Shown: one piece after another, positions 3-25,494 of the stretch
Numbering within the stretch: the first letter of the stretch is position 1
How the letters are laid out: every line of letters begins with the position of its first letter
IMG/VR virus record: IMGVR_UViG_3300021962_000107
Location: 1-61,100 of that record
Length of the DNA stretch: 61,100 bases
From: a virus
Taxonomy: Duplodnaviria; Caudoviricetes
Reading direction: 5' to 3' (one strand)
Translations under genes and position numbers: made by a program
Notes under the pieces: generated by a model
Told to the model about the DNA's origin: nothing
Seen by the model: only the letters and a program-made list of their open reading frames with translations
Database searches by the model: none

Positions 3-2780
3 GGATATGTAGTAAAGGCTCATGCATCTTCTGGAGAAATCTTTGTTAATATTCAAAATGGTTATGAATTAAATGAACTTCACGGAGTTTTAATAAATGG
101 AGTATCTGATAATCAAGCATTGGTATATAATTCTTCTGCAAGTTTATGGTATAACGAATCAATTGTAAATTCTTTACAAGGTACTGAAAATGAAATTAAT
201 GTTTCCGCATCCACTGGAAATATAACCATTGGCATTCCAGATTCTCCACTTTTTATAACTCCAAACATTGGGGCAGCAACAGCAACATCTATTAATGGAA
301 CCACTATTCCAACATCTGCAAGTTTAGCTACAACAGAAGATTTATATTACTATTTAACTTCTGCGTCTGCTGCTTTATTATATCAACCAATAAGTGTAAG
401 ACTTTTTAATTTAACTGCTTTAGAAAATGTTGAAGGATTTTTAAGAACAGATGGAGGCTTGGGATGGGGTATAGATACTGCAGAATATTTAACAACTGGA
501 AATGCTTCCTCAACCTATTTAACTCAACTAGACGCTTCAGATCTATATCTTACTCAGATTGATGCAGAAAATACTTATTTGACACCAGTAACTAGTGCCT
601 CAATATATCAACCACTAGACGATGACCTAACTGCTATCGCAGCACTTTCTGGATCTTCAGGATTTTTAAAGAAAACACTTACAAACACTTGGACACTTGA
701 TACAAATACATATATAACTACATATGATGCTGGAATAACTTATCAACCAATTGGAAATTATGCAACTATTAGTGGGGCAGAAACTCTAACAAATAAAACC
801 ATGAGCTCTGCATTTGTTAATGATGTTTTAACATTTGATGATGGTGCAAATTCAAGCACTATTGATGTTGCTGGAGATAATCTTACAATTAATGCATATG
901 ATGATCTGTATCTAACTACTACAATTGGAGACATTGTATTACAACCAGATCATTTTGTAAAAATATATGATGAATATGTTGCTACACAAGAATGGGTGGG
1001 TTTTCAAAACTATTTAACACAGTCTAGTGCTTCTACTACATATCAACCAATTGGAAGTTATTCTACAACTTCCCATAATCATACGTTAGACAGTCTTTCA
1101 AATGTTGTAATTACTGGAACTCCTGCAGATGGACAGGCAATTGTTTGGGATACGGCTACTTCAAAGTGGGTAAACGAAACAGTTTCTGGTGGTGGTGGAG
1201 CATCATATCCTGATCAAACTGGAAATGATGGAAAGTTTTTACAAACAAATAGTGGAAGCGTATCTTGGCAAAATGTTGACTTTACAGGATATTTAACAGA
1301 ATCATCTGCGTCTACAACATATTTAACTCAGGCTTCTGCTTCTTCAACATACCAACCTGTTGGAAGCTATTTGACATCAGAATCAGACACCCTTGAAACT
1401 GTTACTGACAGAGGTGCATCTTCTACAAATGCTATTACAATTACAAATGCCACAGCAGCTTCTTCTCCAACAACTGGAGCACTTATTGTTACAGGTGGTG
1501 TAGGAATTGGTGAAGATCTATATGTAAATAATGATGTTCATATTGGTGGAGATATACATATTACAGGATCTATTAGTGGATCTTTAACATATGTAAATGT
1601 AAGTGATTTAGTTGTTACAGATCCTTTAATTTATCTTGCTGAAAGCAATCCTAATGATTCTGTAGACATTGGTATTTTTGGTGCATTAAATCATAGCTCT
1701 TCAGCATATTATCATACTGGACTTATTAGAGATGCCTCAGATTCTGGAAAGTGGAAACTGGCTTCAAATCTTTTAGATCCAATAAACAATATTATTGATT
1801 TTACAGGTGCAACATTTGATACATTAAAAATTGGAGCACTTGAAGTAACAGATGCCTCAACAACAAGAACAAATCTTGGTCTTGCTATTGGAACAGATGT
1901 TCAGGCTTATAATTCTACACTTGCAGCAGTCGCAGGTGGAACATATACTGGTGATGATAGTATCACAACTGTTGGAACTATTACAGTTGGAACATGGAAT
2001 GGTTCAACTATTGGATATGCCTATGGTGGAACTGGATTAACAACTCTTGGAGCTGCTGGTCAAGTTCTCAAGGTTAATTCTGGAGCAACTGCTCTAGAAT
2101 GGGGATCAGCAGGACCATCCTTTACAGACTCTGCAGGTCTTGCATCTATAATTTCAGATGAAACTGGAACTGGATCTCTTGTATTTGCAGATACTCCAAC
2201 TTTAATTACACCAAATATTGGAGTTGCTACAGCAACATCTATCAATGGAACAACCATTCCATCCTCTGTAACACTAACAAAAACTTCTGATAATCTATCA
2301 GTATTTGCCAGTACAACTTCTGCAGAGTTAGCATCTATAATTACAAATGAAACTGGCTCTGGCTCTTTAGTATTTTCAAATTCTCCTACACTAGTAACCC
2401 CAAATATTGGAGCAGCAACTGGAACTTCTTTAACTACAACTGGTAATGTAATTAGTCATACTGATATTTTAACTCCAACATTTGTAACAAACTCTTATAC
2501 CTTGACAATAGGAGACGATGGTGACATATTAATGTTAAATAATTCAACTACTGCTGGAAACCTTTTAATTCCAACAGATGCTTCTGTTAATTTTCCAATT
2601 GGAACACAAATTACTATTGTTCAGCAGGGAACTGGTCTAATCACTGTATCTGCAGTAACTCCAGCAACAACCACATTAAATTCAACTCCTGGAGCTAAAC
2701 TAAGAGCACAATGGTCTTCTGCTTCATTAATAAAGACTGCAGCAAATACTTGGCTGCTAGTGGGAGATCTAACGGTATAA
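3..2780 (+). CDS. Large tail fibre / virion surface protein (5'-truncated by the window edge)
   Basis: The frame is open from nt 3 (GYVVKAHASSGEIFVNIQNGYELNELHGV...), so the ORF-track start at 120 is internal. Thr/Ser/Gly-rich, with 10-aa YLT....STY(QP) repeats, a TTGALIVTGGVGIG motif, three TPNIG.AT.TS blocks and a C-terminal FPIGTQI...LRAQWSSASLIK...WLLVGDL module typical of phage fibres. Confidence 0.75.
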   Translation, partial: GYVVKAHASSGEIFVNIQNGYELNELHGVLINGVSDNQALVYNSSASLWYNESIVNSLQGTENEINVSASTGNITIGIPDSPLFITPNIGAATATSINGTTIPTSASLATTEDLYYYLTSASAALLYQPISVRLFNLTALENVEGFLRTDGGLGWGIDTAEYLTTGNASSTYLTQLDASDLYLTQIDAENTYLTPVTSASIYQPLDDDLTAIAALSGSSGFLKKTLTNTWTLDTNTYITTYDAGITYQPIGNYATISGAETLTNKTMSSAFVNDVLTFDDGANSSTIDVAGDNLTINAYDDLYLTTTIGDIVLQPDHFVKIYDEYVATQEWVGFQNYLTQSSASTTYQPIGSYSTTSHNHTLDSLSNVVITGTPADGQAIVWDTATSKWVNETVSGGGGASYPDQTGNDGKFLQTNSGSVSWQNVDFTGYLTESSASTTYLTQASASSTYQPVGSYLTSESDTLETVTDRGASSTNAITITNATAASSPTTGALIVTGGVGIGEDLYVNNDVHIGGDIHITGSISGSLTYVNVSDLVVTDPLIYLAESNPNDSVDIGIFGALNHSSSAYYHTGLIRDASDSGKWKLASNLLDPINNIIDFTGATFDTLKIGALEVTDASTTRTNLGLAIGTDVQAYNSTLAAVAGGTYTGDDSITTVGTITVGTWNGSTIGYAYGGTGLTTLGAAGQVLKVNSGATALEWGSAGPSFTDSAGLASIISDETGTGSLVFADTPTLITPNIGVATATSINGTTIPSSVTLTKTSDNLSVFASTTSAELASIITNETGSGSLVFSNSPTLVTPNIGAATGTSLTTTGNVISHTDILTPTFVTNSYTLTIGDDGDILMLNNSTTAGNLLIPTDASVNFPIGTQITIVQQGTGLITVSAVTPATTTLNSTPGAKLRAQWSSASLIKTAANTWLLVGDLTV

Positions 2781-2787: not shown

Positions 2788-3825
2788 ATGAACATTATTG
2801 GGTCAGTTGCATCTGCAACAAGAAAAATATTTAGAGATACTTTTAATAGGGCAAATCAGACTGGAATTGGTACATCATCTGATGGATCAACCTGGAATAT
2901 AATTAGAGGATCTTTTAATATTACTACAAACAAAGCTGATGGTCAAACTCCTTCAAATTATCCAACTGCTACAGTAGATATGCCAAAAGATACAGTAACG
3001 ATTAGTTTAAGCGGTGTTACTCAAGGATCTACCGCAGCCCTATGGGTTACAGATAGTGGAAACTGGTTTGGCGTTGGAATTGATCAAGAAACAATTTCAT
3101 GTAATTGTCAAACCTGTTCAACACCAGGAAATTGTAATGCCACTAACTATGTTTGCAATGTAGCAAATTATCCTTGTAACGCTACGAACTTTTCTTGTAC
3201 AACTTGGAGTCGTGTCTGCAACTCATCAAGTTATTTTTGTGATGTTGTTGGAAATAGATTCTGTAGAGGGTATACAAGTCCTTGTAATGCTATGAGTACC
3301 CCGTTTAGTCCATGTACTGCATGGTCTAGAGTTTGTAGTAGTGGATATAATACTGGAAACTGTAACTCTACAAACTCTATGACAACGTGTAATGCATACA
3401 CTAGTCCATGTAATGCAGGAAACTATCCATGTTCTACATGGTCTACAGTATGTAATTCAGCTTCATATCCATGTGCTGCATATAATGCAACAACTTTCTA
3501 TAGTTGTAATTGTCAAACTTGTTATCCTCAATATATTAGATTTATTAGATCTGCTTCTAATACAGTAACAGAACTGACTAACTGGTTGGTGGCTAGTGTT
3601 GTTCAATCTTTTAAAGTTATTATATCTTCTATAAATCCAGCAAAAACATCAGCAACAGCAACTATAAAGCCATATTCAGACACCAACCTATCTACACAAA
3701 TTGGATCAGATTTAACATATACTCCAACTGGGGTTGCAATTAATGCAAAATATGGTATAATGGTAAAACCTTCAAGTTATTCTCAAGGAACAACTATTGA
3801 TGAAATATCAATAGAAACAAATTAA
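2788..3825 (+). CDS. Putative virion/receptor-binding protein with a 22-Cys insert
   Basis: Beta-rich N- and C-terminal parts (FRDTFNRAN start) with no Cys; the centre has 22 Cys bracketed by two CNCQTC motifs; follows the fibre gene. Confidence 0.6.
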   Translation: MNIIGSVASATRKIFRDTFNRANQTGIGTSSDGSTWNIIRGSFNITTNKADGQTPSNYPTATVDMPKDTVTISLSGVTQGSTAALWVTDSGNWFGVGIDQETISCNCQTCSTPGNCNATNYVCNVANYPCNATNFSCTTWSRVCNSSSYFCDVVGNRFCRGYTSPCNAMSTPFSPCTAWSRVCSSGYNTGNCNSTNSMTTCNAYTSPCNAGNYPCSTWSTVCNSASYPCAAYNATTFYSCNCQTCYPQYIRFIRSASNTVTELTNWLVASVVQSFKVIISSINPAKTSATATIKPYSDTNLSTQIGSDLTYTPTGVAINAKYGIMVKPSSYSQGTTIDEISIETN

Positions 3826-3835
3826 AGGAGATATA

Positions 3836-4090
3836 GTGTCAGACGAGCAAACTCTACCAGAAATTCCAGATTTAGTAGCTCCACAGTTTGAAGTGTCTCC
3901 ACATCCATATGATATTGCATTAATTGTTGATGATACTGTTTTTCAAATAATGAATGTTGATGGACAACAGGCAGCACAATTCATGTCTCAACCAAAATTT
4001 GTAAGAATTCTTCCTGGAGACTATGTTAAAATTGGATGGAAATATATTGACGGAAGCTTTGTTTATCCAAGCGAAGCTGAGGGATACTAG
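3836..4090 (+). CDS. Small fibre-associated protein (possible assembly chaperone), paralogue A
   Basis: AAGGAG SD plus GTG start; IALIVDDTVFQIM...IGWKYIDGSF; paralogous to 4814..5134. Confidence 0.6.
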   Translation: MSDEQTLPEIPDLVAPQFEVSPHPYDIALIVDDTVFQIMNVDGQQAAQFMSQPKFVRILPGDYVKIGWKYIDGSFVYPSEAEGY

Positions 4091-4103
4091 ATAGGGTCTA
4101 GCT

Positions 4104-4814
4104 TTGAAGCTAATACACTTTGTATGTGCGGAATCAATGGATATTGGAAAACCGCAACCAATTAAAAAATTTATTCCAGATTGGTACAAAAAAGCAGAAA
4201 CTCATTATGTTTCTGATGAGGACGACATATCTGTTGAAAATGGAGAGCAAAAAAAGACTGCAGGTTTAAAAACATGTGTTCCATTTTTAGACGCAATGGT
4301 ATCTGGATATGCACTTGTAGTTCCATTTGATATATATGTTGGAAGAACTGAAAATGGAGATCTTGATATAAAATGGAATGCTCCACAAGGATGGGAAAAT
4401 TTTATTGAAGAAAGACCAAAGCAGTCTGGATCTACTATGCCAAGACCAGCAGGACATGCTCCAAATCATCTAGTTTGGTCAGGTAGATGGGGTATAAAAG
4501 TTCCTAGAGGATATAGCGTATTAGTTACTCATCCATTAAATAGACAAGATTTGCCTTTTACAACTTCTTCTGCAATAATGGATAGTGATAAGTTTTTTGG
4601 AAATGGAAATATTCCATTTTTTATCAAAGAAGACTTTGTAGGAGTAATAGAAAAAAATACTCCTTTTGCTCAAATAATTCCAATTAAAAGAAAAAAGTGG
4701 AAAATGGTTCACAATGATGCACTGGTATATGACATATCAAGGCAAAGTCATAGAATTAGAGAAAAAGAAGGAATGTACAAAAAGAAATATTGGACTAGAA
4801 AGGACTACTCTTAA
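4104..4814 (+). CDS. DUF6065-like protein (possible dUTPase-like beta fold), paralogue 1
   Basis: KTCVPFLDAMVSGY...PRGYSVLVTHPLNR.DLPF...IMDSD...GVIEKNTPFAQIIPIKR; paralogous to 5124..5789. Confidence 0.6.
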   Translation: MKLIHFVCAESMDIGKPQPIKKFIPDWYKKAETHYVSDEDDISVENGEQKKTAGLKTCVPFLDAMVSGYALVVPFDIYVGRTENGDLDIKWNAPQGWENFIEERPKQSGSTMPRPAGHAPNHLVWSGRWGIKVPRGYSVLVTHPLNRQDLPFTTSSAIMDSDKFFGNGNIPFFIKEDFVGVIEKNTPFAQIIPIKRKKWKMVHNDALVYDISRQSHRIREKEGMYKKKYWTRKDYS

Positions 4815-5134
4815 TGGCAAAAAATCACAATCATGAAAATGGTATAAGAGTTTTAACAACAAGAGAGATGATTAATGACTTTTTTACTAGAAGAAAAAAG
4901 TATAAAAATAAGATATCCTTAGATTCTAGTGCAATGCCACCACCTCCTCCAAGCTCTAAAATAAATTATTTAGCAATTATTTTAGATGATGAAGTGCAAG
5001 AGATAATGAGAGCACAAAATAGGTTGGCAGCACTATTACTAAGTCAGCCATTGATTGTAGAATTTGATCCAGAAGAAATTCAGCCAAATATTGGTTGGAG
5101 CTACGTTGATGGAAAATTCTATAATGAAGAGTAA
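4814..5134 (+). CDS. Small fibre-associated protein, paralogue B
   Basis: LAIILDDEVQEIM...IGWSYVDGKF aligns with 3836..4090; start overlaps the upstream stop (TAATG). Confidence 0.6.
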   Translation: MAKNHNHENGIRVLTTREMINDFFTRRKKYKNKISLDSSAMPPPPPSSKINYLAIILDDEVQEIMRAQNRLAALLLSQPLIVEFDPEEIQPNIGWSYVDGKFYNEE

Positions 5135-5789
5135 TAAAAAAATTAAATTTATATCTTGTATGCCAGAAATAGATATACCACATCCATATCCAGCAAGTAA
5201 GCTAGTTCCAGAATGGTATAGAAGACTTCCTGGTGCTTCAAATAAGGTTGAGACAGTAAAGAAATGTATTCCAATACTAGACGCACTAACTTCTGGGTAC
5301 ATGATAACTTTGCCAGTAGATGTTCATTTTAATCAAGAAGAAAAAAGTTTTTGGTACGACTCTCCATTTCAGATTAATTCTGACCACTATGTTTCACAAA
5401 CACAGGGAGTTGATATAGGTAAAGAATTTGATGAGCAACCACATAAATGGATTAATCAGTGGTTAATTGAAACTCCAAAAGGGTATAGTTGTTTATTTAT
5501 ACATCCATTAAATAGAATGGACCTTCCATTTAGATCCTTTACTGGAATTGTAGATACAGACAAACATCCAATTGCCATAAACTTTCCTTTTGTTATGAAA
5601 AAAGATTTTTCTGGAGTAATTCCAGCAGGTACTCCAATTATACAGATTATCCCATTTAAAAGAGATGACTGGTCTATGGATGTAATTGATGACAGACCTT
5701 TTAAAGAACATCCAGAGGCACATGAAGTAGAAAATCCACCGTTCAACTGGTATAAAAGAAAATGGTGGACAAGAAAGGTATATTCTTAA
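5124..5789 (+). CDS. DUF6065-like protein, paralogue 2
   Basis: KKCIPILDALTSGY...PKGYSCLFIHPLNR.DLPF...GIVDTD...GTPIIQIIPFKR; start placed at ATG 5124 by alignment with paralogue 1. Confidence 0.6.
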   Translation: MKSNKKIKFISCMPEIDIPHPYPASKLVPEWYRRLPGASNKVETVKKCIPILDALTSGYMITLPVDVHFNQEEKSFWYDSPFQINSDHYVSQTQGVDIGKEFDEQPHKWINQWLIETPKGYSCLFIHPLNRMDLPFRSFTGIVDTDKHPIAINFPFVMKKDFSGVIPAGTPIIQIIPFKRDDWSMDVIDDRPFKEHPEAHEVENPPFNWYKRKWWTRKVYS

Positions 5790-6754
5790 TGGAAACAATC
5801 TATGTTGGAATACCATCAATGGTTGATACCGAAACAGCTGCCACTATTAGGAATGCTATAGAATATGCAGAGTTTCCAGAAAGAGTTTTTATTGGAGTTT
5901 CTTTTAAAGATTTAAATAAAAAAGAATATAAAAAAGTTTTAGATTTAAAAAAAGAATATCCAAACATAACTGTAGAGTTTATAAAACTTAAAAAAAGAGA
6001 TGTATCTCAATATGGAACTGGAGATGGTAGATATAGAGCACAAAAACTATACTCTGGTCAAGATTATATGCTTCAGGTAGATTCTCATACATATTTTGAT
6101 AAAAACTGGGATTCTTATTTAATAAAATCATTTAAAGAATTTAAAAGTGAGACTGGAATAGAAAAATTTGTACTTACATCATACATACCATATTATTCAT
6201 ACGCTCCACATAGAGTTAGACACTCAGGAGATCTATACCTTCCAAGGTATCCACATCTACTTGTAGACCAGTTTTTCCTAGGCTATTTACCTAAATGGGA
6301 TGACACAACAATTCCAAAAGAAAAAAACTTACCTAAATTTTTACCATGTGTAAAATTTAACGGAGCCTTCGCATTTGGAGACAAAAATTTTATCAACAAT
6401 ACTGGAGTTTTTAAGGATGCAATATTTTACGATGAGGAATTAATTCAAAGTATAAATTTAGTTGGAAATGGATTTGCTTTAGTTTTTCTAAATGTTACAG
6501 ATTTTCCAATAGCACATCTATACTCTGCAGACATTAATAAGTTTGGTGGCAAAAGAACATACTTTGGAGATCTTTTAAGCTTAAGAAAACAAAAGGAAGT
6601 GGCAGATAAAGCCGTATCAAATTATTTAAACTTTATATCAAATCCAGAAAATAAAGAACGTGTTAAAAAATATGAAAAATATGCTAAAATGGATTCTAGG
6701 CGTGGAGCCCTTTTTAATAACTATATACCTAAAAAATTTATTGTGGAGGATTAA
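5789..6754 (+). CDS. GT60/GlcNAc-family glycosyltransferase (Skp1 hydroxyproline GlcNAc-transferase-like)
   Basis: TIYVGIPSMVD...AEFPERVFIG...RYRAQKLYSGQDYMLQVDSHTYFDKNWD...FNGAFAF...EE...HLY match the family pattern (QxDSH); start overlaps the upstream stop. Confidence 0.75.
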   Translation: METIYVGIPSMVDTETAATIRNAIEYAEFPERVFIGVSFKDLNKKEYKKVLDLKKEYPNITVEFIKLKKRDVSQYGTGDGRYRAQKLYSGQDYMLQVDSHTYFDKNWDSYLIKSFKEFKSETGIEKFVLTSYIPYYSYAPHRVRHSGDLYLPRYPHLLVDQFFLGYLPKWDDTTIPKEKNLPKFLPCVKFNGAFAFGDKNFINNTGVFKDAIFYDEELIQSINLVGNGFALVFLNVTDFPIAHLYSADINKFGGKRTYFGDLLSLRKQKEVADKAVSNYLNFISNPENKERVKKYEKYAKMDSRRGALFNNYIPKKFIVED

Positions 6755-6755
6755 T

Positions 6756-7067
6756 ATGGACAATGTACCAGATATTCCAGAACTGGTATACCCAAAAGTT
6801 GTAGAGGAAAAAAACTCAGATGCAAAAAGACCCGTCAGACCATGGGATATATTTAATAAAAATGTTGAAAAAGTAGCAGAAAATGTTCAAAAAGAAAGAA
6901 TGTCAACATGCTTGCAATGTCCTAGATTAATTAAGGCTACAAGGCAATGTAAAGAATGTGGATGCTTTATGGATGCAAAGACTAGGCTTTTTGATGCAGA
7001 ATGTCCATTAGGAAAATGGAGTCAGATAAAAGTTAGCAGAGATCAGTTTGATTATAAGAACGGATAA
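6756..7067 (+). CDS. Cys-cluster protein (DUF6171-like)
   Basis: GGAGG SD before ATG 6756; RMSTCLQCP...QCKECGCFM..K......CPLGKW (6 Cys). Confidence 0.65.
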   Translation: MDNVPDIPELVYPKVVEEKNSDAKRPVRPWDIFNKNVEKVAENVQKERMSTCLQCPRLIKATRQCKECGCFMDAKTRLFDAECPLGKWSQIKVSRDQFDYKNG

Positions 7068-7069
7068 TA

Positions 7070-7810
7070 ATGCCTGAAATAAGTATCGTAACTGGTAATG
7101 CAACCAACATGTCTTTTATTAATAGCTCCTCTGTTGATTTAATTATTGCCGCACCCCCATTTATTTATAAAAGTCCAGAAATATATGGAGGAGATCCAAA
7201 AAAACAAATAAACTTTAATCATAATAAAATGTTAAATCTTCTTATTAAAAGTACTAAAGAGATGGAAAGAGTTTTAAAGCTAACAGGAAGTATATGGATT
7301 GAAATATCTCCAGAAGATGACTTAATGCATAGATATATTTCAAAAGTATTAAAAAAAACTAATTTAAAACATGTTGATACAATTATTCATAAAATATCAG
7401 AAGATGAATATAAGTCAAAAAATGATGAATTTATTTATAAAGATTGGTATTTATGGTTTCATCTTGTAAAAGATTCTGATGCATTCTATAAAAATCCATT
7501 TAAAATAAAAAAATTTAGAGACCCATTATGGGAGTTGAAAAATACAAATAAAGATGATATAATTGACAAAACTTTAAGACTAAATTATCCAAATATTCCT
7601 AATTACACTGTTATTAAAGATATACCAGAAAGGCTTATCGAAATGTACACTAAACAAGGTGGTCTAGTTTTAGATCCATTTGGAGGAAGTGGAACGGTTG
7701 CTTCTGTGGCTTATAATTTAAATAGAAATGCCATAAGTGTTGATATATCTGAGGATCAAACAGAGATAGCAAAAAGAAGACTAGAATTAACGAAAAGTAT
7801 TGATAAGTGA
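7070..7810 (+). CDS. N4/N6 DNA methyltransferase family (beta class) with a degenerate catalytic motif
   Basis: SVDLIIAAPPF near the N-terminus where (S/D)PPY is expected; VLDPFGGSGT SAM-binding motif near the C-terminus. Confidence 0.7.
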   Translation: MPEISIVTGNATNMSFINSSSVDLIIAAPPFIYKSPEIYGGDPKKQINFNHNKMLNLLIKSTKEMERVLKLTGSIWIEISPEDDLMHRYISKVLKKTNLKHVDTIIHKISEDEYKSKNDEFIYKDWYLWFHLVKDSDAFYKNPFKIKKFRDPLWELKNTNKDDIIDKTLRLNYPNIPNYTVIKDIPERLIEMYTKQGGLVLDPFGGSGTVASVAYNLNRNAISVDISEDQTEIAKRRLELTKSIDK

Positions 7811-8535
7811 TGTTTAATAAAAAATACATAGAAATTAATAGACTTTCTGAAACTCCAGTATTTGAAGTAATTCCAGGAAAAGTAAAAAGAAAATGGATGG
7901 ATAAAACAGAAGGAAATGCCTATAAGTGTGTTCCAATGAATGTTGCAAATTCTTATGGGTGGACTGTTTTATCTCCTTTAGAATTTTCTGCAACTTGGGA
8001 TGGTGGGAATGCAAAACATTCTCTTCAAGTTGATTTGCCAGCAAATAGTCCATTTAGATTTGCAGCATCTGAGTTTGGTCATGGAATTTTATCTATTGTT
8101 CCAGATTTTATAGTTAGAACATCAAAGAATGTTTCTTTATATGTAAGGGGAGTTCCAAATCAACTTGCTATAGGTCTACAGCCATTTGATGGCATAATTG
8201 AAACAGATTGGCTACCTTTTACTTTTACATTTAATTATAAGTTTATTAAATCTGGAAGGTTAACAATTAAAAAAGATCAACCACTTTTTACATTTTTTCC
8301 AATAGAAAGAGGATATATAGAAAATTTTGAAACTAGAGACATAAATGTTTATGATGATAAAGAGTTTTATGAAGATTATTTAAAATACTCAGACCTAAGA
8401 GAGGATCAAAACTCTGGCAAAGATAGTAAAAATGGTGGTGCATATTTAAAAGGTAAGTTATACGATAAAGAGTTTGAAATAGAAAATCATATAAAAAAGG
8501 TTAGCCTTTCAGAGTTTAAAAAGAAGGAAAAATAG
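7810..8535 (+). CDS. DUF6065 family protein, paralogue 3 (more divergent)
   Basis: RKWMD...AYKCVPMNVANSYGW...FGHGILS...GVPN...GIIETDWLPFTFTFN. Confidence 0.7.
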   Translation: MFNKKYIEINRLSETPVFEVIPGKVKRKWMDKTEGNAYKCVPMNVANSYGWTVLSPLEFSATWDGGNAKHSLQVDLPANSPFRFAASEFGHGILSIVPDFIVRTSKNVSLYVRGVPNQLAIGLQPFDGIIETDWLPFTFTFNYKFIKSGRLTIKKDQPLFTFFPIERGYIENFETRDINVYDDKEFYEDYLKYSDLREDQNSGKDSKNGGAYLKGKLYDKEFEIENHIKKVSLSEFKKKEK

Positions 8536-9443
8536 TGTCAAAATATCTTATAACTGGTGGTCCAGGGTCTCTTGGAAAAGAAATTTGTAAACAACTTTTA
8601 AACTTTTCAGATACTGAAGAAATTACAATGTTTTCTAGAAATGAAACAAAGCAGTTTGAATCCTCTATGGATATAAATGATAGAAGAGTTAAATATATTA
8701 TTGGAGACATTAAAAATTTTAATTCTTTATTTAATGCAATGAATGGAGTTGATTTTGTATTTCATGCTGCAGCATTAAAACACATAGATTTAGCAGAAAA
8801 GTCACCAGATGAAACCATTAATGTAAATGTTGTTGGAACAAATAATGTAGTAAATGCAGCTATTCAAAATAATGTAAAAAAAGTTTTACTAATTTCTACT
8901 GATAAGGCTTGTATACCAACCAGTATATATGGCGTAAGTAAGCTGCTATCTGAAAAAAATATAATATTATCAAATAATATATCTGATACAAAGTTTTCTG
9001 TAGTAAGATTTGGAAATTTAATTGGAAGTAACGGATCTATTTTCCAAAAATGGAAGATAATGAAGGATAGTGGTCAAAGGATATCCGTTACAGATAAAGA
9101 TATGACAAGACTTTTTATTAGAAGCTCAGATGCTGCTTCTTGGGCAATTAAATTTTTGTTAATAATGAATGGTAGCGAAATTTTTGTCCCTAAGATGAAA
9201 AGTGCAAACATTTATGAAATTGCCAAGTCCTTTATTGATGAGTCAAGAATAGATATAGTTGGAACTAGACCTGGAGAAAAGTTAGATGAAGATATTCTAT
9301 CTAGTTTAGAGCTTGGATCTGTTGACGATCTTGGAGATTTTTATATTTTAAATAATGATAATAAAGTTGGAAACTTTTCATATAATAGTAGTACTAATAA
9401 ATACTGGTATTCTGGAAAAGAAATAAAAGATTTTTTTAATTAG
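8535..9443 (+). CDS. UDP-GlcNAc 4,6-dehydratase (PseB/CapD-like SDR)
   Basis: LITGGPGSLG, FHAAALKHI, ISTDKA, YGVSK, VRFGNLIGSNGS, MTRLF, RPGEKL. Confidence 0.85.
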   Translation: MSKYLITGGPGSLGKEICKQLLNFSDTEEITMFSRNETKQFESSMDINDRRVKYIIGDIKNFNSLFNAMNGVDFVFHAAALKHIDLAEKSPDETINVNVVGTNNVVNAAIQNNVKKVLLISTDKACIPTSIYGVSKLLSEKNIILSNNISDTKFSVVRFGNLIGSNGSIFQKWKIMKDSGQRISVTDKDMTRLFIRSSDAASWAIKFLLIMNGSEIFVPKMKSANIYEIAKSFIDESRIDIVGTRPGEKLDEDILSSLELGSVDDLGDFYILNNDNKVGNFSYNSSTNKYWYSGKEIKDFFN

Positions 9444-11147: not shown

Positions 11148-11732
11148 ATGGCAATAGATACTATTATATCTAATGATGAATTAGTTGTAGTTGGACCACC
11201 TGCCTCAGTATCTGTAAGTGTTGACATTGGTCCACAAGGAGAAAGAGGATCACAGTTTTTTACTGGAGTAGGACCTCCATCAGAAAATTCTTCAATTTTA
11301 ACAAGTGCGAAAATAAATGATTTATATATAAATAGAAGACTTGATGGTGGAAAATATGGAGTTGTCTATAAGCTAGATGCAATCCCTGGTGGATCTATTT
11401 GGCAAGAAGTTTTAAAGTTTCAGCCACTGGCTTATAGTGTTCAAAAAATAATTAATTTTTCTGCAGGTTCTGGATCAACTTCAATAGCTTTGGCAGACTT
11501 TTACTCTAGTGCTCCAGAAGGATTAGACCCAAATAGTATCTTAGTTCAGGCAACGGCAGAATTAAATAATCCAGCATTTATATCTATATCAGATAAATCA
11601 ATTACTGAAATATCTTCAACAAAAACATTTATTATACAGCTAAAGGGTGCAGAATTGTCTTCAGGTACAGTATCTCTATTATCTTCTTCTGCAATCCCTG
11701 TAAACCTTTTTATAACAGCAGGAGTTGCATAG
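11148..11732 (+). CDS. Minor tail/fibre-associated protein
   Basis: DIGPQGERGSQFFTGVGPP...INDLYIN fibre-junction-like motif. Confidence 0.5.
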   Translation: MAIDTIISNDELVVVGPPASVSVSVDIGPQGERGSQFFTGVGPPSENSSILTSAKINDLYINRRLDGGKYGVVYKLDAIPGGSIWQEVLKFQPLAYSVQKIINFSAGSGSTSIALADFYSSAPEGLDPNSILVQATAELNNPAFISISDKSITEISSTKTFIIQLKGAELSSGTVSLLSSSAIPVNLFITAGVA

Positions 11733-11735
11733 TTT

Positions 11736-12440
11736 ATGGCACAATTAATTAGTTCTTCTAAAAATTTTTCAGCCCCAGCTTTTAACACCTATGTTCCACA
11801 GCTTTCTGATAATGCAGATATTCAAAATGCTTTTGAATTATTCTACTATGGAAATTTTGAAACTGGAAATACCTATGATACTACTAATAGTATTTATGCA
11901 AATCTTTTAAGTTTTGATACAAGAATTGATAGTGCTGAAAATAATATTTCTGGACATATAGGTGCATCAGAAGCACACGATGCTACTGGTGGCATAGTCG
12001 GTGTTACTAAAGCACAGACATTAACAAATAAAACTTTAACACTTCCTAAGATTAATGAAAATGTTGAACTTACTGCTACAGCAACAGAGCTTAATGTTCT
12101 TGATGGAATTACCTCTAGCACAGCAGAATTAAATATTCTTGACGGAGTTACTTCTAGTGCTGCAGAACTTAATATCCTTGATGGTGTAACTGCGTCTACT
12201 GCAGAATTAAATATCCTTGATGGTGTAACTACGTCTACTGCAGAACTTAATGTTCTTTATGGAGTAACTGCTACTACTTCTGAAATTAATTATTTAAGTG
12301 GAGTTACTTCTGCTATTCAAACTCAAATTAATTTAAAACCAACTTTAAGGTATGAAGGCTCTATTGTAAATAGAAATATTTTTGTTCAAGCAGCACAGCC
12401 TACAGCAGTAAATGTTGGCGATATTTGGTTTGACTTCTAG
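11736..12440 (+). CDS. Short tail fibre protein with 13-aa tandem repeats
   Basis: QTLTNKTLT; six (T/A)AELNILDGVT.S repeats; C-terminal QPTAVNVGDIWFD. Confidence 0.65.
   Translation: MAQLISSSKNFSAPAFNTYVPQLSDNADIQNAFELFYYGNFETGNTYDTTNSIYANLLSFDTRIDSAENNISGHIGASEAHDATGGIVGVTKAQTLTNKTLTLPKINENVELTATATELNVLDGITSSTAELNILDGVTSSAAELNILDGVTASTAELNILDGVTTSTAELNVLYGVTATTSEINYLSGVTSAIQTQINLKPTLRYEGSIVNRNIFVQAAQPTAVNVGDIWFDF
12081..12314 (+). repeat. 39-nt (13-aa) tandem repeat, about 6 copies
   Basis: gcagaattaaatatccttgatggtgtaact-type units with synonymous variation. Confidence 0.85.
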
Positions 12441-12448
12441 GATATAGT

Positions 12449-13264
12449 ATGGCTATTCAATGGGGATCCTGGGTATACGCTGGTGGAAACGGTATGCGTA
12501 TTGGTCTGGATATATCCTGGTCAGCTGTTGATTCAGGATCATCTAGTACAACTGCAACAATAGCTGTTTGGACTCAAAATCAGTATAACTATGCTGATGC
12601 TCAAACAATTACATATGGTGGCTCATTATCTGGAACAACAAACTATACAAATAATGGTGCTACTGGAACTAGCACACAAAGAGCAACAAAAACTTATACT
12701 CACACATATGGCTCAAACCCTGCAACATTTACTTTTTCTGCAACACTTTCTGGTCTATACAATGGTGGAAATCCAAGTGTTTCAGTTTCCAGTACTACTC
12801 CAACTAGACCTGCTCCACCACCTCCACCACCTCCTCCACCTCCTCCGCCTCCTCCACCTCCTCCTCCAATATTTGCTCCATCTGCACCACAGTCATTTGC
12901 TGCAAATACTAACACTTTTGGACAAATAGGTCTTTCATGGTCAGCACCAGCTAGTAATGGCGGTTCTGCTGTAACTAGTTATGTGCTTCGTAATGGCACA
13001 ACTGTGTTACAAAATAGCTTATCCACATCTTATACTCATACAGGTCTATCTCCAGATACGGATTATTCCTATACAGTTACTGCTGCCAATGCTGTTGGTG
13101 AAGGAGCTGCAGCATCTCTAACAGCTAGAACTCTTGGAGGAATTGTAAAAGTATGGAATGGTACACAATATGTAACAGCTATTCCAAAAGTGTGGAATGG
13201 ATCATCATGGGTCAATGCTCAGGCAAGAGTTTGGAATGGAACAGAATGGAAATATGGAATTTAA
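12449..13264 (+). CDS. Virion protein with an 18-Pro linker and a fibronectin type III domain
   Basis: P18 at 12815-12868; APSAP...LSWSAPASNGGSAVTSY...GLSPDTDYSYTVTAANAVGEG is FN3; C-terminal (K/R)VWNG x3. Confidence 0.8.
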   Translation: MAIQWGSWVYAGGNGMRIGLDISWSAVDSGSSSTTATIAVWTQNQYNYADAQTITYGGSLSGTTNYTNNGATGTSTQRATKTYTHTYGSNPATFTFSATLSGLYNGGNPSVSVSSTTPTRPAPPPPPPPPPPPPPPPPPPIFAPSAPQSFAANTNTFGQIGLSWSAPASNGGSAVTSYVLRNGTTVLQNSLSTSYTHTGLSPDTDYSYTVTAANAVGEGAAASLTARTLGGIVKVWNGTQYVTAIPKVWNGSSWVNAQARVWNGTEWKYGI

Positions 13265-13646: not shown

Positions 13647-14738
13647 ATGCCATCTCCAACAATTGCTTTTTTAACCTACGACTGGTCATTCGGTGTAAAA
13701 CCATTACAACCAAATGGCTGTGGTTGGTACAGATGCTATCTACCAATGAAGCAGTTGAAGGAGCATGGCTGGGAAAGTGGAATAGGTCTTCCAGGATTTA
13801 GTCCAGAACATGCCTTTGGAATTTTATTGCCAGAAGAAAAGGCAATTCATGGATGGGACATTATCGTATTAAAGTTAATCATGCTTGAAAGGTTTGTTGA
13901 CCATGTTAAGAGAGCAAAAGAACTTGGTCAAAAAATTGTTGTTGATATTGATGATCATATGGAAGGTCTTGAAGAAACTAACCTTGCCTATAAAACAACT
14001 CATCCAGATTCAAATCCAAAAAATAACAGAGAGCACTATGTTGCTATTATGGATCAGGCAGATGCTTTAATTACTTCTACCCCATTTTTATATGATTTTT
14101 ATAAAGAAAAATATCCAGAAAAACCAATCTTTATGGTAAGAAATGGCATAGACATTGAAAGATGGAATATGAGAAAAGATCATAAAGGATGGCTACCTAC
14201 TTTTGGATGGGTTGGTGCAACACCTTGGAGATCTGGAGATTTAGAAACCCTTAATCCATTCTTTGGTGAATTCTTAAAACAAAAACATTTAAAGTTTCAT
14301 CATGCAGGAAATATTATTAATGCTCCAACTGCTGCTCAGCAAATTGGAATAGATAAAAGACTTTGTACTGTAGAGCCTATGAAGACAATGTTAGGAGTTC
14401 CAGAACTTTATAGAAAAATGGATGTTGGAATTGTTCCTCTAAGAAATGTTCCATTTAATCATGCTAAGTCATATCTAAAAGGTTTAGAAAATGCAGCAGC
14501 AGGAATTCCTTTTATTGCATCTGGAGGACTTCCAGAATATCAGCTATTTGCTGATGAGGGCGTTGGAAGAATAGCAAACACACCTGATGAATGGATTGGT
14601 CATATGACAGAACTTTTAAATCCAAAAGTAAGACTTGAAGAAAGAATGAAAAATCGTGAAATCATATCTGAAAAATTCTCTATGAAGCAAAGAGGGTATG
14701 ATTGGGACGAAGTGTTCAGAAAAATTCTTGCACTATAA
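13647..14738 (+). CDS. GT-B (GT4-like) glycosyltransferase
   Basis: GCGWYRC..P, DIDD, RNGID, FGWVG, DVGIVPL...FNHAKSYLKGLENAAAGIPFIAS. Confidence 0.8.
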   Translation: MPSPTIAFLTYDWSFGVKPLQPNGCGWYRCYLPMKQLKEHGWESGIGLPGFSPEHAFGILLPEEKAIHGWDIIVLKLIMLERFVDHVKRAKELGQKIVVDIDDHMEGLEETNLAYKTTHPDSNPKNNREHYVAIMDQADALITSTPFLYDFYKEKYPEKPIFMVRNGIDIERWNMRKDHKGWLPTFGWVGATPWRSGDLETLNPFFGEFLKQKHLKFHHAGNIINAPTAAQQIGIDKRLCTVEPMKTMLGVPELYRKMDVGIVPLRNVPFNHAKSYLKGLENAAAGIPFIASGGLPEYQLFADEGVGRIANTPDEWIGHMTELLNPKVRLEERMKNREIISEKFSMKQRGYDWDEVFRKILAL

Positions 14739-15554: not shown

Positions 15555-17495
15555 ATGTCATTTATTGACTCCAATGGATCTATAACAGACCCATACCGCA
15601 ACTTTATTCATATTTCAAGGTACGCTCGTTGGATTGAAAGCGAAAACCGTAGAGAAACCTGGCAGGAGACTGTTGATAGATACTGCAATTTCATGAAAGA
15701 TCATTTAGTATTAAATTATGGCTATAGCCCAAATGCAAAAATTTTTGATGAAGTTAGAGAAGCTATTCTAAAGCATCACATCATGCCTTCTATGAGGGCA
15801 CTGATGACCGCAGGACCTGCTTTAGAAAGAGATCATATTGCAGCATATAACTGTTCTTTTATTGCTGTAGACAGCCCTAGAGCCTTTGATGAGGCAATGT
15901 ACATTCTTATGAATGGAACTGGAGTTGGATTTAGTGTTGAGCAAAAGTATATTAACCAATTACCAGTAATTGCTGAGTCATTCTTTCAAACAAATACAAC
16001 TATTGTTGTTGATGATTCAAAACTTGGTTGGGCAAAAGCTTTCAAAGAATTAATTGCACTACTTTATCAAGGTCAAATTCCAAATTGGGATGTGTCTAAA
16101 GTTCGTCCATCAGGAGCAAGACTAAAGGTTTTTGGAGGAAGAGCTTCTGGACCAGACCCCCTTGTTGACTTATTTAAATTTACCATTGAAACATTTAAAC
16201 TTGCTGCAGGAAGAAAATTAAAGTCAATTGAGGCACATGACTTAATGTGTAAAGTAGGAGAAGTTGTTGTTGTTGGTGGTGTTCGCAGAAGTGCTTTAAT
16301 TTCACTTTCTAATCTTGATGATTTTGAAATGGCAAAGGCAAAGAGTGGTCAATGGTGGGAGGGAAATGGTCAAAGAGCTTTAGCTAATAACTCTGCTGTC
16401 TATAATTCAAAGCCAAATACTGCACAATTCCTTCGTGAATGGAGAAACTTGTACGAGTCAAAGTCAGGTGAGCGTGGCATCTATAATATGGATTCTGTTC
16501 GTAAGCATATTGATAAGTTTGGTCGTAGAGATTCTAGTCTAGTTGGTGGAACAAACCCCTGTGGAGAAATTCTTCTTCGTCCAAATGAATTTTGTAATCT
16601 TACAGAAGTTGTTATTGAAGCATCTGATACAAAAGAAACACTTCTTGAAAAAGTACGCCTTGCTACAATTCTTGGAACTTGGCAGTCAACTTTGACAAAC
16701 TTTAAGTACATCAGAAAGACCTGGAAAGACAACTGTGAAGAAGAAAGGCTTCTTGGAGTATCTTTGACAGGTATTTATGGAAATAAAATTACCGCTACAA
16801 ATGGAAAAGCTTTAGAAGCACTTCTTGATGAAATGAGAGATCTATCTGTTTCAGTAAATGATAAAGAGGCTAAATCTTTAAATATTAATCCTTCAGTATC
16901 AATTACTTGTGTAAAGCCTTCAGGAACGGTCTCACAGCTCACAGGAGTATCCTCTGGTATTCATCCATGGTATTCAGAATATTATGTAAGAAGTGTTAGA
17001 GCAGACAATAAAGACCCTCTTACACAGTTCCTAAAAGACTCTGGAATTCCATTTGAACCAGATGTTATGAAGCCAGAAGCTACAACAGTTTTCTACTTTC
17101 CAATTAAGGCTCCAAAGAATGCAGTTCTTACAAAAGATTTAAGTGCAATTGATCATCTTGAAATGTGGAAAACTTATAGAACTCATTGGACAGAGCATAA
17201 TCCAAGTGTTACTATTAATGTTGAAGAAGATGAGTGGATGCGTGTTGGTGCTTGGGTATTTGATAACTTTGATTCAATTGGTGGAGTATCATTTTTACCA
17301 GCAGTTGAGCATTCTTATAAACAGGCTCCATATCAAGAAATTTCTAAAGAAGAATACGAATCTTGGGTTAGCAAGATGCCTGACTCAATTCGTTGGGATA
17401 TGCTTTCTTTATATGAAACAACTGATGGAACAACTGGAAGCCAAGAGCTATCCTGCGTTGCAGGAGCATGTGAAATTGTAGACATTACAAGATAG
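15555..17495 (+). CDS. nrdJ: Class II (adenosylcobalamin-dependent) ribonucleotide reductase
   Basis: PSMRAL, YNCSF, GGVRRSALI, TNPCGEI, TCVKPSGTVSQL, C-terminal CVAGAC pair; 646 aa; no beta-subunit gene nearby. Confidence 0.92.
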   Translation: MSFIDSNGSITDPYRNFIHISRYARWIESENRRETWQETVDRYCNFMKDHLVLNYGYSPNAKIFDEVREAILKHHIMPSMRALMTAGPALERDHIAAYNCSFIAVDSPRAFDEAMYILMNGTGVGFSVEQKYINQLPVIAESFFQTNTTIVVDDSKLGWAKAFKELIALLYQGQIPNWDVSKVRPSGARLKVFGGRASGPDPLVDLFKFTIETFKLAAGRKLKSIEAHDLMCKVGEVVVVGGVRRSALISLSNLDDFEMAKAKSGQWWEGNGQRALANNSAVYNSKPNTAQFLREWRNLYESKSGERGIYNMDSVRKHIDKFGRRDSSLVGGTNPCGEILLRPNEFCNLTEVVIEASDTKETLLEKVRLATILGTWQSTLTNFKYIRKTWKDNCEEERLLGVSLTGIYGNKITATNGKALEALLDEMRDLSVSVNDKEAKSLNINPSVSITCVKPSGTVSQLTGVSSGIHPWYSEYYVRSVRADNKDPLTQFLKDSGIPFEPDVMKPEATTVFYFPIKAPKNAVLTKDLSAIDHLEMWKTYRTHWTEHNPSVTINVEEDEWMRVGAWVFDNFDSIGGVSFLPAVEHSYKQAPYQEISKEEYESWVSKMPDSIRWDMLSLYETTDGTTGSQELSCVAGACEIVDITR

Positions 17496-21113: not shown

Positions 21114-21485
21114 ATGGATTATATAGAAGGCTTACAAAAAATGCCAAACAAGCCAAAAGTAAAGGTAGTAGAGAATACTTCTGAATATGGTTTATATGTT
21201 TGGAAAATGGAAACTGGTAAAATATTTGGTGATGGAAATGGAAGTTTTATGAACATTCCTGCCAGAAAATATGATATTGGTGCGATTAATAGAATTACAC
21301 AGGCTGCAGCCCACTACGGTGCTGGTCCTGGAAAGGCAGTATTTATGCCAGGAGTAACAAGAGTTACAGAAGAAGAAAACTCTGTTCAGATTGATAGAAT
21401 GAAGCAGGGATATATTCCAGATGAATTTGATACTGGAGCTTTCATAGATGCTGCAAAGGGGCTGAAAAAGCATGGAGATGACTGA
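21114..21485 (+). CDS. Hypothetical protein upstream of the portal
   Basis: Intact ORF overlapping the portal start. Confidence 0.65.
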   Translation: MDYIEGLQKMPNKPKVKVVENTSEYGLYVWKMETGKIFGDGNGSFMNIPARKYDIGAINRITQAAAHYGAGPGKAVFMPGVTRVTEEENSVQIDRMKQGYIPDEFDTGAFIDAAKGLKKHGDD

Positions 21486-24498: not shown

Positions 24499-25494
24499 AT
24501 GACAGAAAACAATGAAATTTTAGAAAAGGCTGCTGCTGCTGGAACAATTGCGTCTGGTGGCATTGGTGGAGTATCTACTCCAGCAGCTGGAATTCTTGAC
24601 AATACTAACCCAGTTGGTGATCTAGTGTCTGATGGCGGTATTTTGCAGCCTGAACAGTCACGTCAGTTTATTGAGTATATCTTTGAACAGCAGGTACTAG
24701 CACAAGATGGTCGTAGAGTCACGATGAGAGCTAACACAACTGAGCTTGAAAAGATGAATGTTGGAGAGCGTGTAATCCGTGCAGCAGCCCAGGCTGATGC
24801 AACCTACACAAATGCTGACGTTCAGTTTACCAAGGTATCACTAACCACCAAGAAGATTCGTCTTGACTGGGAAGTATCTAGCGAAGCTCTTGAAGATAAT
24901 ATCGAAGGTGCAGGTCTTGAGGATCACTTGGTCCGTACAATGACCCGTGCATTTGCAAACGATCTTGAAGATCTAGCTATCAATGGTACAGGAACTGGTA
25001 CAAACAGCTTCCTTAACATCCTTGAAGGCTTCGTTTCAATCGAAGCTGATGGTAACTCAGCAGCATATGGTACAACTATTGAAGACTTGCAGGGACTTGT
25101 TCTTGCAATGCCTCGTAAGTACCGTGGCTCTCGTTCGAACATGAAGTTCTATGCAGATACCGAAACCGTTGCTTCAATTATCAATGGTCTTGGTTCTTCA
25201 GGTAACTTGAATTCAGAGCGTATTGTTGAGCGTGTAATTGATGGAGCTGCTCCGCAGACCCTTGGTTCACCAATTCAGTACCGTGTTCTAGGTCTTCCAT
25301 TAGTTGAAGTTCCTTTGATGCCAGCTGGTTATGTATCACTTACATTCCCAGAAAACCGCATTTGGGGCTTCCAGAGAGACGTAACAGTACACCGTGAATT
25401 CAAGCCAAAGAAGGACACTGTAGAATATACAGTATTCCTACGCTTTGGTGTTGCAATCGAAGAAACCGATGCAGTAGCATTCATGCAAGACTAA
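24499..25494 (+). CDS. Major capsid protein (HK97 fold)
   Basis: GGAGGTG SD; GGILQPEQSRQFI, SEALEDNIEG, FANDLEDLAING, RVLGLPLVEVP; follows protease/scaffold. Confidence 0.92.
   Translation: MTENNEILEKAAAAGTIASGGIGGVSTPAAGILDNTNPVGDLVSDGGILQPEQSRQFIEYIFEQQVLAQDGRRVTMRANTTELEKMNVGERVIRAAAQADATYTNADVQFTKVSLTTKKIRLDWEVSSEALEDNIEGAGLEDHLVRTMTRAFANDLEDLAINGTGTGTNSFLNILEGFVSIEADGNSAAYGTTIEDLQGLVLAMPRKYRGSRSNMKFYADTETVASIINGLGSSGNLNSERIVERVIDGAAPQTLGSPIQYRVLGLPLVEVPLMPAGYVSLTFPENRIWGFQRDVTVHREFKPKKDTVEYTVFLRFGVAIEETDAVAFMQD

Follow-up and report, generated by a model that had tools for sequence, protein, structure and literature searches.

The gene, its cysteine block and its family

The stretch analysed here, called the window below, is the whole of the viral record IMGVR_UViG_3300021962_000107 (61,100 nucleotides, Caudoviricetes), a linear contig that is estimated to be 52% complete and that encodes an HK97-type portal, a protease and a capsid protein. 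Our subject is a single gene of the window, the family gene, whose 345-residue product contains a cysteine-rich block (Table 1). By script count the protein has exactly 22 cysteines, and every one of them falls within residues 105-245 (nucleotides 3100-3522). This clustering is far from chance, since cysteine makes up 22 of the 141 residues inside the block and none of the 204 outside it. The other large structural open reading frames (ORFs) of the window have no cysteine or one (the 886-residue fibre, the 2104-residue tape-measure-like ORF, the capsid and the portal have none).

A preliminary description made from the sequence alone had reported one 22-cysteine block opened and closed by the hexapeptide CNCQTC, and this proved exact for residues 105-245. 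Successive cysteines are spaced 2, 3, 6, 7, 7, 7, 7, 7, 8, 7, 10, 7, 9, 9, 7, 7, 7, 7, 11, 2 and 3 residues apart, and the inner series given in that description was reproduced on recount without a difference. The recurring heptads that it listed are likewise all present: NYPC, WSRVC and YTSPC twice each, and SYPC and WSTVC. Apart from its 22 Cys, the block holds 21 Asn, 20 Ser, 19 Thr, 10 Tyr, 5 Phe and 3 Trp, and no His.

The block had also been called nearly palindromic. For the 345-residue protein alone this part of the claim did not stand: the mirror mismatch of the spacings was 8, and shuffled series averaged 10.2 (p = 0.20). Such a value is not beyond chance, as the distance is 7 in 11 of the 15 inner intervals. 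Nor is the block sequence a mirror. It consists of three direct copies of a 28-residue, four-heptad unit, [xxYxxPC][NAxNxxC][xxWSxVC][NSxSYxC]; the first and third copies agree in 17 of their 28 residues, a level reached in 0 of 20,000 composition-matched trials. At the DNA level the block contains only a 2.1-copy tandem repeat of 21 nucleotides; we found no palindrome in the block DNA and no second copy or long repeat elsewhere in the window. When the cysteines are nested from the outside inwards, the sums of the paired positions are 350, 349 and 350, then 345 five times, then 343, 342 and 342. In this nested register all three Trp heptads stand opposite heptads of the Tyr..Pro type. The part of the claim that did stand is the mirror order, which is seen across the family and is described in the next section.

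Searches with the 345-residue protein returned no family in Pfam-A, PHROGs v4 or NCBIfam 20; its profile had no match at E≤1 among PDB sequences, and tblastn against 50,697 phage records gave none. Sequence homology to annotated actinophage minor tail or receptor-binding proteins was accordingly absent from the tblastn phage records, PHROG and PDB. The metagenomic databases were richer. A 90%-clustered database yielded 230 matches, and the family comprises 735 clusters at 50% identity (E≤1e-3), 194 of which have E≤1e-30. Related viral loci in IMG/VR number 78. The carriers are phages of roughly 100 kb (contigs up to 125 kb) and appear to be related to actinophages. Among prokaryotes, represented by one genome each of 185,579 species and searched with two peptide patterns, no family relative was found, and the family therefore offers no prophage-based host assignment. 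Counts over full-length members refer to 138 proteins: from 150 representatives at 50% identity, 12 that were shorter than 270 residues were dropped as fragments. Block length across the family runs from 78 residues (P0015) to 402 residues (L058, 46 Cys), and the number of rungs of paired cysteines from 3 to 23, which confirms the variability in length that the earlier description had suggested.

Scaffold, mirror order and probable pairing of the cysteines

The window protein was modelled with AlphaFold2 (AF2) from an 85-sequence alignment. The model is a beta-sandwich with a predicted local distance difference test (pLDDT) score of about 86-97 for residues 11-120 and 231-345, above 90 in the core, and the cysteine block emerges as a loop insertion between two adjacent sandwich strands. 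The short homologue P0015 (280 residues, 14 Cys) was modelled with a mean pLDDT of 85.8, and a three-copy complex prediction for it had a score of 0.01. With VIA-align the window model superposed best on 8zdo_a of the mycobacteriophage Douge baseplate (Z 15.8, 2.9 Å, 170 aligned residues), followed by the carbohydrate-binding module (CBM) CBM66 (4b1m; Z 15.7, 2.8 Å, 153 aligned residues) and the receptor-binding domain of TM4 gp23 (9n6a; Z 15.7). In all, 126 chains had Z≥8, and the list was filled by lectins, CBMs and GH16/GH43 modules. The superpositions confirm, at the level of a predicted model, that the scaffold is a concanavalin A (ConA)-like lectin/glucanase beta-sandwich, in keeping with the beta-sandwich of the preliminary description. 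This fold call is based on VIA-align; Foldseek against PDB gave weak rows only (best E 5e-3). In BFVD, six uncultured-phage proteins came first, followed by proteins annotated as minor tail protein from Arthrobacter, Rhodococcus, Gordonia, Mycobacterium and Streptomyces phages. ESM Atlas returned viral clusters and a weak match to a SO2946-like C-terminal domain (score 0.90), which we take as a lead only.

To compare mirror and direct-repeat models of the block across the family, we used the cysteine spacings with the outer spacings dropped (two per end for 95 unique patterns; one per end for 107 representatives). The mirror model was significant (p<0.01) in 47 of the 95 unique patterns and the direct-repeat model in 1. 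For the 107 representatives whose cysteine count was even and at least 10, the mirror model was significant in 48 and the direct model in 2. The lengths of left and right segments (1129 cells, 121 unique patterns) were correlated at mirror register 0 (Spearman 0.78); for the same cells the coefficient fell to 0.12-0.41 when the register was slid by one to three rungs, and to 0.00-0.21 in direct order. Long Cys-free stretches are matched across the arms as well (92/92 in P0085, 35/36 in P0075 and 27/32 in P0031), and whole zones of spacing are symmetric, as in P0085 (2, 3, 3, 8, 92, 16, 92, 8, 8, 2, 3) and P0099 (2, 37, 5, 9, 5, 8, 5, 8, 16, 8, 5, 9, 5, 8, 5, 42, 3).

The residues between the cysteines follow the same register. 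At register 0, Trp-containing cells were found opposite Pro-ending cells with an odds ratio of 3.98 among the 31 sequences of the close subfamily and of 1.98 when all 163 were taken, against 0.53-0.82 and 0.57-0.74, respectively, at shifts of ±1 and ±2; these register shifts preserve sequence relatedness. Mirrored strands are also present in the AF2 models, at residues 108-112/236-240, 116-119/229-232 and 166-169/176-179 of the window protein and at 106-111/170-175, 114-117/164-167 and 125-128/151-154 of P0015, and the constant i+j of the strand pairs matches the nested cysteine sums. The mirror register and the mirrored strands support two antiparallel arms, as the preliminary description had proposed with its hairpin and cross-strand cysteine pairing, and 11 nested pairs can be put forward for the window protein. 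The solenoid or sequential knots that it had named as contrary outcomes are not favoured, as the arm lengths agree only in mirror order.

If the cysteines are partners across the arms, they should be gained and lost in pairs. An even cysteine count was found in 117 of 120 listed homologues and in 165 of the 170 family proteins with at least 8 Cys. The 138 representatives include 110 with an even count of at least 6 Cys, 3 with an odd count, 23 without cysteine and 2 with 1-5 Cys. Close relatives add rungs to both arms: P0003 has two more cysteines than the window protein on each arm. Substitutions have removed rungs in P0018, so that each arm has a 14-residue cell and the two cells mirror each other in position.

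For the bracket cysteines we used bracket-flank alignments of 170 unique sequences, all with 6 Cys or more, and disregarded cysteines in the first 60 residues. All six were present in 92 sequences. C3 and C4 were lost together (CC.|.CC) in 37 and C1 and C6 (.CC|CC.) in 21, whereas the loss combination expected from parallel pairing occurred in none of the 170; the remaining 20 sequences were divergent or ambiguous. In P0173 there are five additional CNC units in the outgoing arm, balanced by five additional CQTC units in the returning one, and these counts fit the expectation if the left CxC faces the right CxxC. The comparative evidence thus upholds the predicted gain and loss in pairs and supports nested, parallel-rung cysteine partners, a pairing that is read here from the sequences.

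The block evolves faster than its surroundings. In comparison with P0008 the N-terminal domain is 80% identical and the C-terminal domain 88%, while the non-Cys positions of the block are 40% identical. Between the window and the loci L001-L005, non-synonymous divergence (dN) was 0.13-0.23 in the block against 0.06-0.10 in the flanks, with the ratio of non-synonymous to synonymous divergence (omega) below 1 throughout. L003 and L004 (about 5986-7029 in each) share the block (synonymous divergence, dS, 0.036) and have diverged flanks (dS 0.39-0.44); between L002 and L003 it is the C-terminal domain that is shared (dS 0.044), and the block has diverged (dS 0.70). This mosaicism points to recombination at the bracket motifs as its probable source. 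P0029, with 17 Cys, combines a Cys-free outgoing arm (27 residues, like P0031) with a returning arm that has five heptad cysteines (like P0018), and it looks like a natural recombinant with unpaired cysteines or an assembly chimera of two arm types. The Asn-rich variable block also prompted us to consider it as the target of a diversity-generating retroelement. This candidate was rejected: no direct repeat of at least 30 nucleotides involving 3100-3522 was found in the 61.1-kb record. No reverse transcriptase was found among the 32 of 65 ORFs scanned, in a record that is about 52% complete, so that a distant element is possible.

Interpretation and rival explanations

The family gene begins 7 nucleotides after the end of the upstream ORF (3-2780). 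Over its last approximately 100 residues that ORF has 43-50% identity to annotated minor tail proteins of Gordonia phages (which account for 221 of the 246 matching records) and to Actinomycetia phage DSL-LC01; it had no match among PDB sequences. A homologue of this fibre C-terminus ends within 150 nucleotides upstream of the family gene in 57 of the 78 loci, and a DUF6065-like gene lies within 1.5 kb downstream in 70 of the 78. The family protein shares both its fold and its tail-gene neighbourhood with actinophage minor tail and receptor-binding proteins. From the conserved fibre upstream and DUF6065 synteny downstream, we infer that it is best read as a putative partner of the tail fibre.

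Taken together, we consider it fairly probable that the protein is a tail-fibre-associated, adhesin-like ConA sandwich of an uncultured siphovirus-like phage, carrying a variable-length antiparallel hairpin with 11 nested cysteine rungs. The 141-residue insertion in one sandwich loop would run out along residues 111-166, turn at a 9-residue tip and come back along residues 176-239. At its base the left CxC would face the right CxxC and the reverse, giving the rungs C105-C245, C107-C242 and C110-C240; eight further rungs would follow (C116-C229, C123-C222, C130-C215, C137-C208, C144-C201, C151-C192, C159-C183 and C166-C176), and between them Trp-type heptads would lie opposite Tyr/Pro-type heptads. 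The protein would be made in the cytoplasm, as its N-terminal sequence suggests no signal peptide, and would be assembled with the fibre. Because it would be synthesised there without a signal peptide, disulfide closure may be placed after lysis, when in oxic water the 11 nested pairs would oxidise. A repeat hairpin able to fold even in their absence would be stiffened by the disulfides into a rigid rod that resists proteases and bears a periodic strip of Tyr, Trp and Asn. Projecting from the lectin-like head, such a rod could reach a glycan of the cell envelope or bind to it, and gain or loss of repeats on both arms could adjust its length.

Several observations weigh against this interpretation. 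AF2 modelled the central part of the arms with low confidence (residues 121-220, pLDDT 33-59). The rails can be unequal, with 13-mers against 12-mers in L067 and 6+9 against 14+1 in P0247. In a canonical two-stranded antiparallel ribbon, moreover, a 7-residue period makes the rungs alternate between non-hydrogen-bonded and hydrogen-bonded sites. With this period the rails cannot be a regular beta-ladder, and with unequal rails in addition they are probably kinked or looped between rungs. Odd cysteine counts occur in P0017, P0024, P0029, P0148, P0198 and P0230. Among the full-length representatives, the 23 without cysteine still have a long insertion rich in Tyr, Thr, Ser, Asn and Gly; since these members keep the fold, the cross-links are not needed for it and would be an optional reinforcement. 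The family counts of parity, mirror order and losses are phylogenetically non-independent. Finally, a Pfam scan of 32 of the 65 ORFs of the window found no thiol oxidase, thioredoxin or DsbA family.

Two rival explanations concern the way in which the cysteines are paired. In a beta-solenoid or a row of small disulfide modules (insect antifreeze proteins, rods of epidermal growth factor (EGF) or TNFR type), each cysteine would pair locally with the next, and the palindrome would be a by-product of uniform tandem repeats. Tenebrio-type antifreeze solenoids are built in this manner from short Cys/Thr/Ser/Asn-rich tandem repeats with one local disulfide each, and form a rigid rod with a periodic surface. 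The window protein, with its three direct copies of the 28-residue unit and its own palindrome at p = 0.20, resembles such a structure, and even cysteine numbers are expected from it too. Across the family, however, the order is that of a mirror and not of the direct repeats of a solenoid. Period zones and Cys-free stretches recur in mirror order (Spearman 0.78 against 0.10; 47/95 against 1/95; 48/107 against 2/107), the 14-residue cells of P0018 stand at mirrored positions on both arms, and bracket cysteines from opposite sides of the block are lost together. Local pairing is therefore very improbable. An oligomer, for example a trimer, would keep the out-and-back topology, with the hairpins bundled into a multi-stranded needle and some or all of the rungs formed by inter-chain disulfides. 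Phage fibres and receptor-binding proteins are commonly trimers, and T4 gp37 forms a needle that runs out and back, with periodic ligands along each arm. Mirror-matched arms and even cysteine counts are expected equally from such a bundle, which would also be more tolerant of the odd 7-residue period and the unequal rails. The data do not require it, however: the preference for Trp facing Pro and the mirrored strands of the AF2 monomer are explained within one chain. We regard the oligomer as unlikely.

Other explanations dispense with the disulfides or with the virion. The thiols might remain in reduced form as ligands of metal ions (Zn, Fe, Cu or Fe-S), in the CxCxxC brackets if not elsewhere, within a metal-stabilised or metal-sensing module compatible with assembly in the cytoplasm. 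The CxC and CxxC motifs at both block ends, synthesis in a reducing cytoplasm without a signal peptide, and the lack of a phage thiol oxidase among the scanned ORFs are all in line with such a module. Against it, the inner cysteines are single and 5-13 residues apart, which leaves two ligands per level only; the window protein has no His in the block, which is aromatic-rich (10 Tyr, 5 Phe, 3 Trp); and the bracket cysteines are dispensable in pairs (58 of 170) while 23 of 138 representatives lack cysteine altogether. We give metal binding a very small chance. It is just as hard to credit that the neighbouring DUF6065 paralogues and glycosyltransferase act on the Cys, Ser and Thr residues of the block and introduce enzymatic cross-links or decorations (thioether, hydroxylation, glycosylation). 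This idea draws on the DUF6065-like paralogue that follows within 1.5 kb in 70 of 78 loci, on the three DUF6065 paralogues, PF11397 glycosyltransferase and sugar-nucleotide enzymes of the window, and on the 20 Ser, 19 Thr and 21 Asn in the 141-residue block. But DUF6065 has no known function, no PDB sequence relative and no mention in papers; no lanthipeptide or radical-SAM family was found among the 32 ORFs scanned; and DUF6065 homologues occur in haloarchaeal viruses, which belong to a collection where the cysteine protein found no match. Cysteine pairs on opposite arms are in any case most simply Cys-Cys bonds. The protein could, lastly, be absent from the virion and act as an assembly chaperone for the upstream fibre or as an intracellular lectin-like factor. 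Genes just downstream of fibre genes often encode fibre chaperones, and about 17 kb separate the family gene from the main head-tail module downstream of it (portal at 21472). We think such a role quite improbable, as the fold matches actinophage receptor-binding and minor-tail domains, the block is hypervariable and exchanged between lineages in the manner of receptor-binding modules, and a ladder with 15% Cys makes little sense in a reducing cytoplasm.

The proposed laddered hairpin was compared with known systems. The TM4 gp23 receptor-binding domain (9n6a), the Douge baseplate chain 8zdo_a and CBM66 have the same scaffold fold (Z 15.7-15.8, rmsd 2.8-3.1 Å, 153-174 residues); they have no detectable sequence similarity to the family, and a Cys-rich hairpin insertion is absent from the entry titles. 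In actinophages the ConA-like domain is the C-terminus of a long fibre, whereas the family here is a separate small protein. The ConA-like phage tail scaffold is thus already known; the insertion architecture is new. Metallothioneins, with their obligatory clustered cysteine ligands, were considered and set aside: 23 of 138 representatives have no cysteine, and the inner cysteines are isolated. The gp38 adhesins of T2 and S16 resemble the family protein in being small proteins encoded right after a fibre gene, with conserved repeats and hypervariable parts. They cap the fibre tip and are polyglycine-II sandwiches, not ConA-like, without a Cys ladder. theta-Defensins and two-disulfide beta-hairpin antimicrobial peptides have about 18 residues and two or three rungs spaced two residues apart, and are made in oxidising compartments.

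In the accessible part of PMC6327110 (citing Conibear 2012), the cystine ladder of theta-defensins is described as antiparallel strands joined by parallel nested cross-strand disulfides. Two antiparallel arms with nested cross-strand cysteine partners are the point of likeness to the arrangement supported here. The differences lie in rung number (11 here and 3-23 in the family), in rung spacing (5-13 residues) and in the fact that rung number evolves, and there is no sequence relation. The block also lacks the short-peptide CxCxC motif and cyclic backbone of cystine ladders, being a 141-residue insertion with 5-11-residue spacings in a 345-residue protein. The same part of PMC6327110 describes domain I of Chlamydomonas HAP2, in which a lineage-specific, cystine ladder-like module is inserted in a loop and is thought to be an interaction site. 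According to that part of the source, this module too is a disulfide-laddered insert in the loop of a beta-rich surface protein, but it has 37 residues, three disulfides with EGF-like connectivity and a fixed length, and belongs to a eukaryotic secreted protein. In the accessible text of PMC9942802 the glycine-rich domain of S16 gp38 is mentioned, and freshwater cyanophage Pam3 is reported to have functional, dithiothreitol-sensitive virion disulfides that anchor its fibres to the baseplate. As far as that text goes, Pam3 is a precedent for disulfides in the virions of an oxic-freshwater phage, with few inter-protein disulfides where a long intra-chain ladder is proposed here. A literature search without supplementary files found no variable-length ladder of 7-23 rungs in a phage protein. 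We also entertain, as a doubtful proposal with rather less than an even chance, that the family represents an undescribed fibrous architecture, a 'two-rail repeat ladder', in which the short repeats of the two arms complement each other, the arms expand and contract together so that rod length is free to evolve, and up to 23 nested disulfides lock the rod only outside the cell. It would then be a redox-armed receptor probe of adjustable length, and would exceed in length every other natural cystine ladder known.

Should the nested ladder prove real, the 735 clusters at 50% identity would form a large unannotated family of receptor-binding modules, and the range of 3-23 rungs with matched arms throughout would offer a simple evolutionary route to the tuning of fibre length. 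It would also raise a question of oxidative maturation, as a virion assembled in the cytoplasm must gain up to two dozen disulfides, and reduction at the host surface could figure in infection. For engineering, it would provide a modular, disulfide-stapled scaffold in many lengths that tolerates hypervariable sequence between the rungs.

Genomic neighbourhood and host

Table 1. Position and content of the family gene, its parts and the neighbouring genes in the window.
Feature	Position	Strand	Remarks
Fibre-like minor tail protein gene	3..2780	+	Open at the 5' end of the window; 925 residues in the window; 0 Cys
Family gene	2788..3825	+	345 residues; stop codon 3823-3825; predicted ConA-like beta-sandwich with putative Cys-ladder insertion
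N-terminal sandwich half (residues 1-104)	2788..3099	+	AF2 pLDDT 89-96 for residues 11-100; conserved W36, Y58, G80, W86, W93
Left bracket CNCQTC (C105, C107, C110)	3100..3117	+	Motif at residue 105
Putative outgoing arm (residues 111-166)	3118..3285	+	8 Cys: 116, 123, 130, 137, 144, 151, 159, 166; AF2 strands 108-112, 116-119, 166-169
Putative tip loop NAMSTPFSP (residues 167-175)	3286..3312	+	Between C166 and C176; flanked by AF2 strands 166-169 / 176-179
Putative returning arm (residues 176-239)	3313..3504	+	8 Cys: 176, 183, 192, 201, 208, 215, 222, 229
Right bracket CNCQTC (C240, C242, C245)	3505..3522	+	Motif at residue 240
C-terminal sandwich half (residues 246-345)	3523..3822	+	AF2 pLDDT 86-97; conserved P247, R251, I305, G323, Q333
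Downstream cassette	3836..5789	+	84-residue ORF, 236-residue protein, 106-residue ORF, 241-residue paralogue; the larger two phrog_7084 / DUF6065-like
Glycosyltransferase PF11397	5762..6754	+	E 2.7e-21; follows the cassette; syntenic in many related loci

Several features of the window hint at the host. The ribonucleotide reductase gene (15555-17495) is the only DNA-level match, with 76% identity to Streptomyces phages, and the capsid protein (24499-25494) is about 40% identical to those of Streptomyces siphophages of about 130 kb. Together with the Gordonia-like fibre C-terminus, these similarities suggest that the host is probably an actinobacterium. The G+C content of the window is about 34%, far below that of the actinobacterial hosts hinted at.

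The cassette downstream of the family gene is a duplicated two-gene unit, with a small ORF followed by a DUF6065/phrog_7084 protein, and a third DUF6065 paralogue (242 residues, E 6e-55) is encoded further on at 7807-8535. The DUF6065 protein had no match among PDB sequences, a literature search returned no paper mentioning DUF6065, and NCBIfam gave no match for six local proteins. Homologues with 31-34% identity are present in 46 records of haloarchaeal tailed viruses (35 Halorubrum, 11 Haloarcula); in HF2 the homologue lies beside a tail module that includes the ConA-like minor virion protein VP1.

Glycosylation genes are located at 5762-6754, 8535-9443, 13647-14738 and 58744-59757 and comprise a PF11397 GlcNAc-type glycosyltransferase, a PF02719 sugar-nucleotide dehydratase-like gene, a GT1-like gene and a GDP-mannose-dehydratase/epimerase-like gene. 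Their products may serve to glycosylate the phage's own fibre proteins or to modify the glycans of the host. Repeats were also found in fibre-related and other ORFs. Within the upstream fibre gene a 129-nucleotide repeat occurs three times (173-301, 2123-2251 and 2312-2440) with 64-74% identity, and six tandem 39-nucleotide (13-residue) repeats lie at 12031-12303 inside the ORF at 11736-12440. Polyproline tracts (PPPPPP repeats; repeat families D1, D4 and D8) are present in two ORFs, at 12449-13264 and 41292-42275, one of which also has an fn3 domain. The ORF with the 39-nucleotide repeats belongs to a Cys-free group of ORFs (11148-13264) that may encode further fibre parts. At the end of the record, a gene of the IMP dehydrogenase / GMP reductase family (PF00478, E 7e-101) at 59742-60785 is a possible auxiliary metabolic gene.

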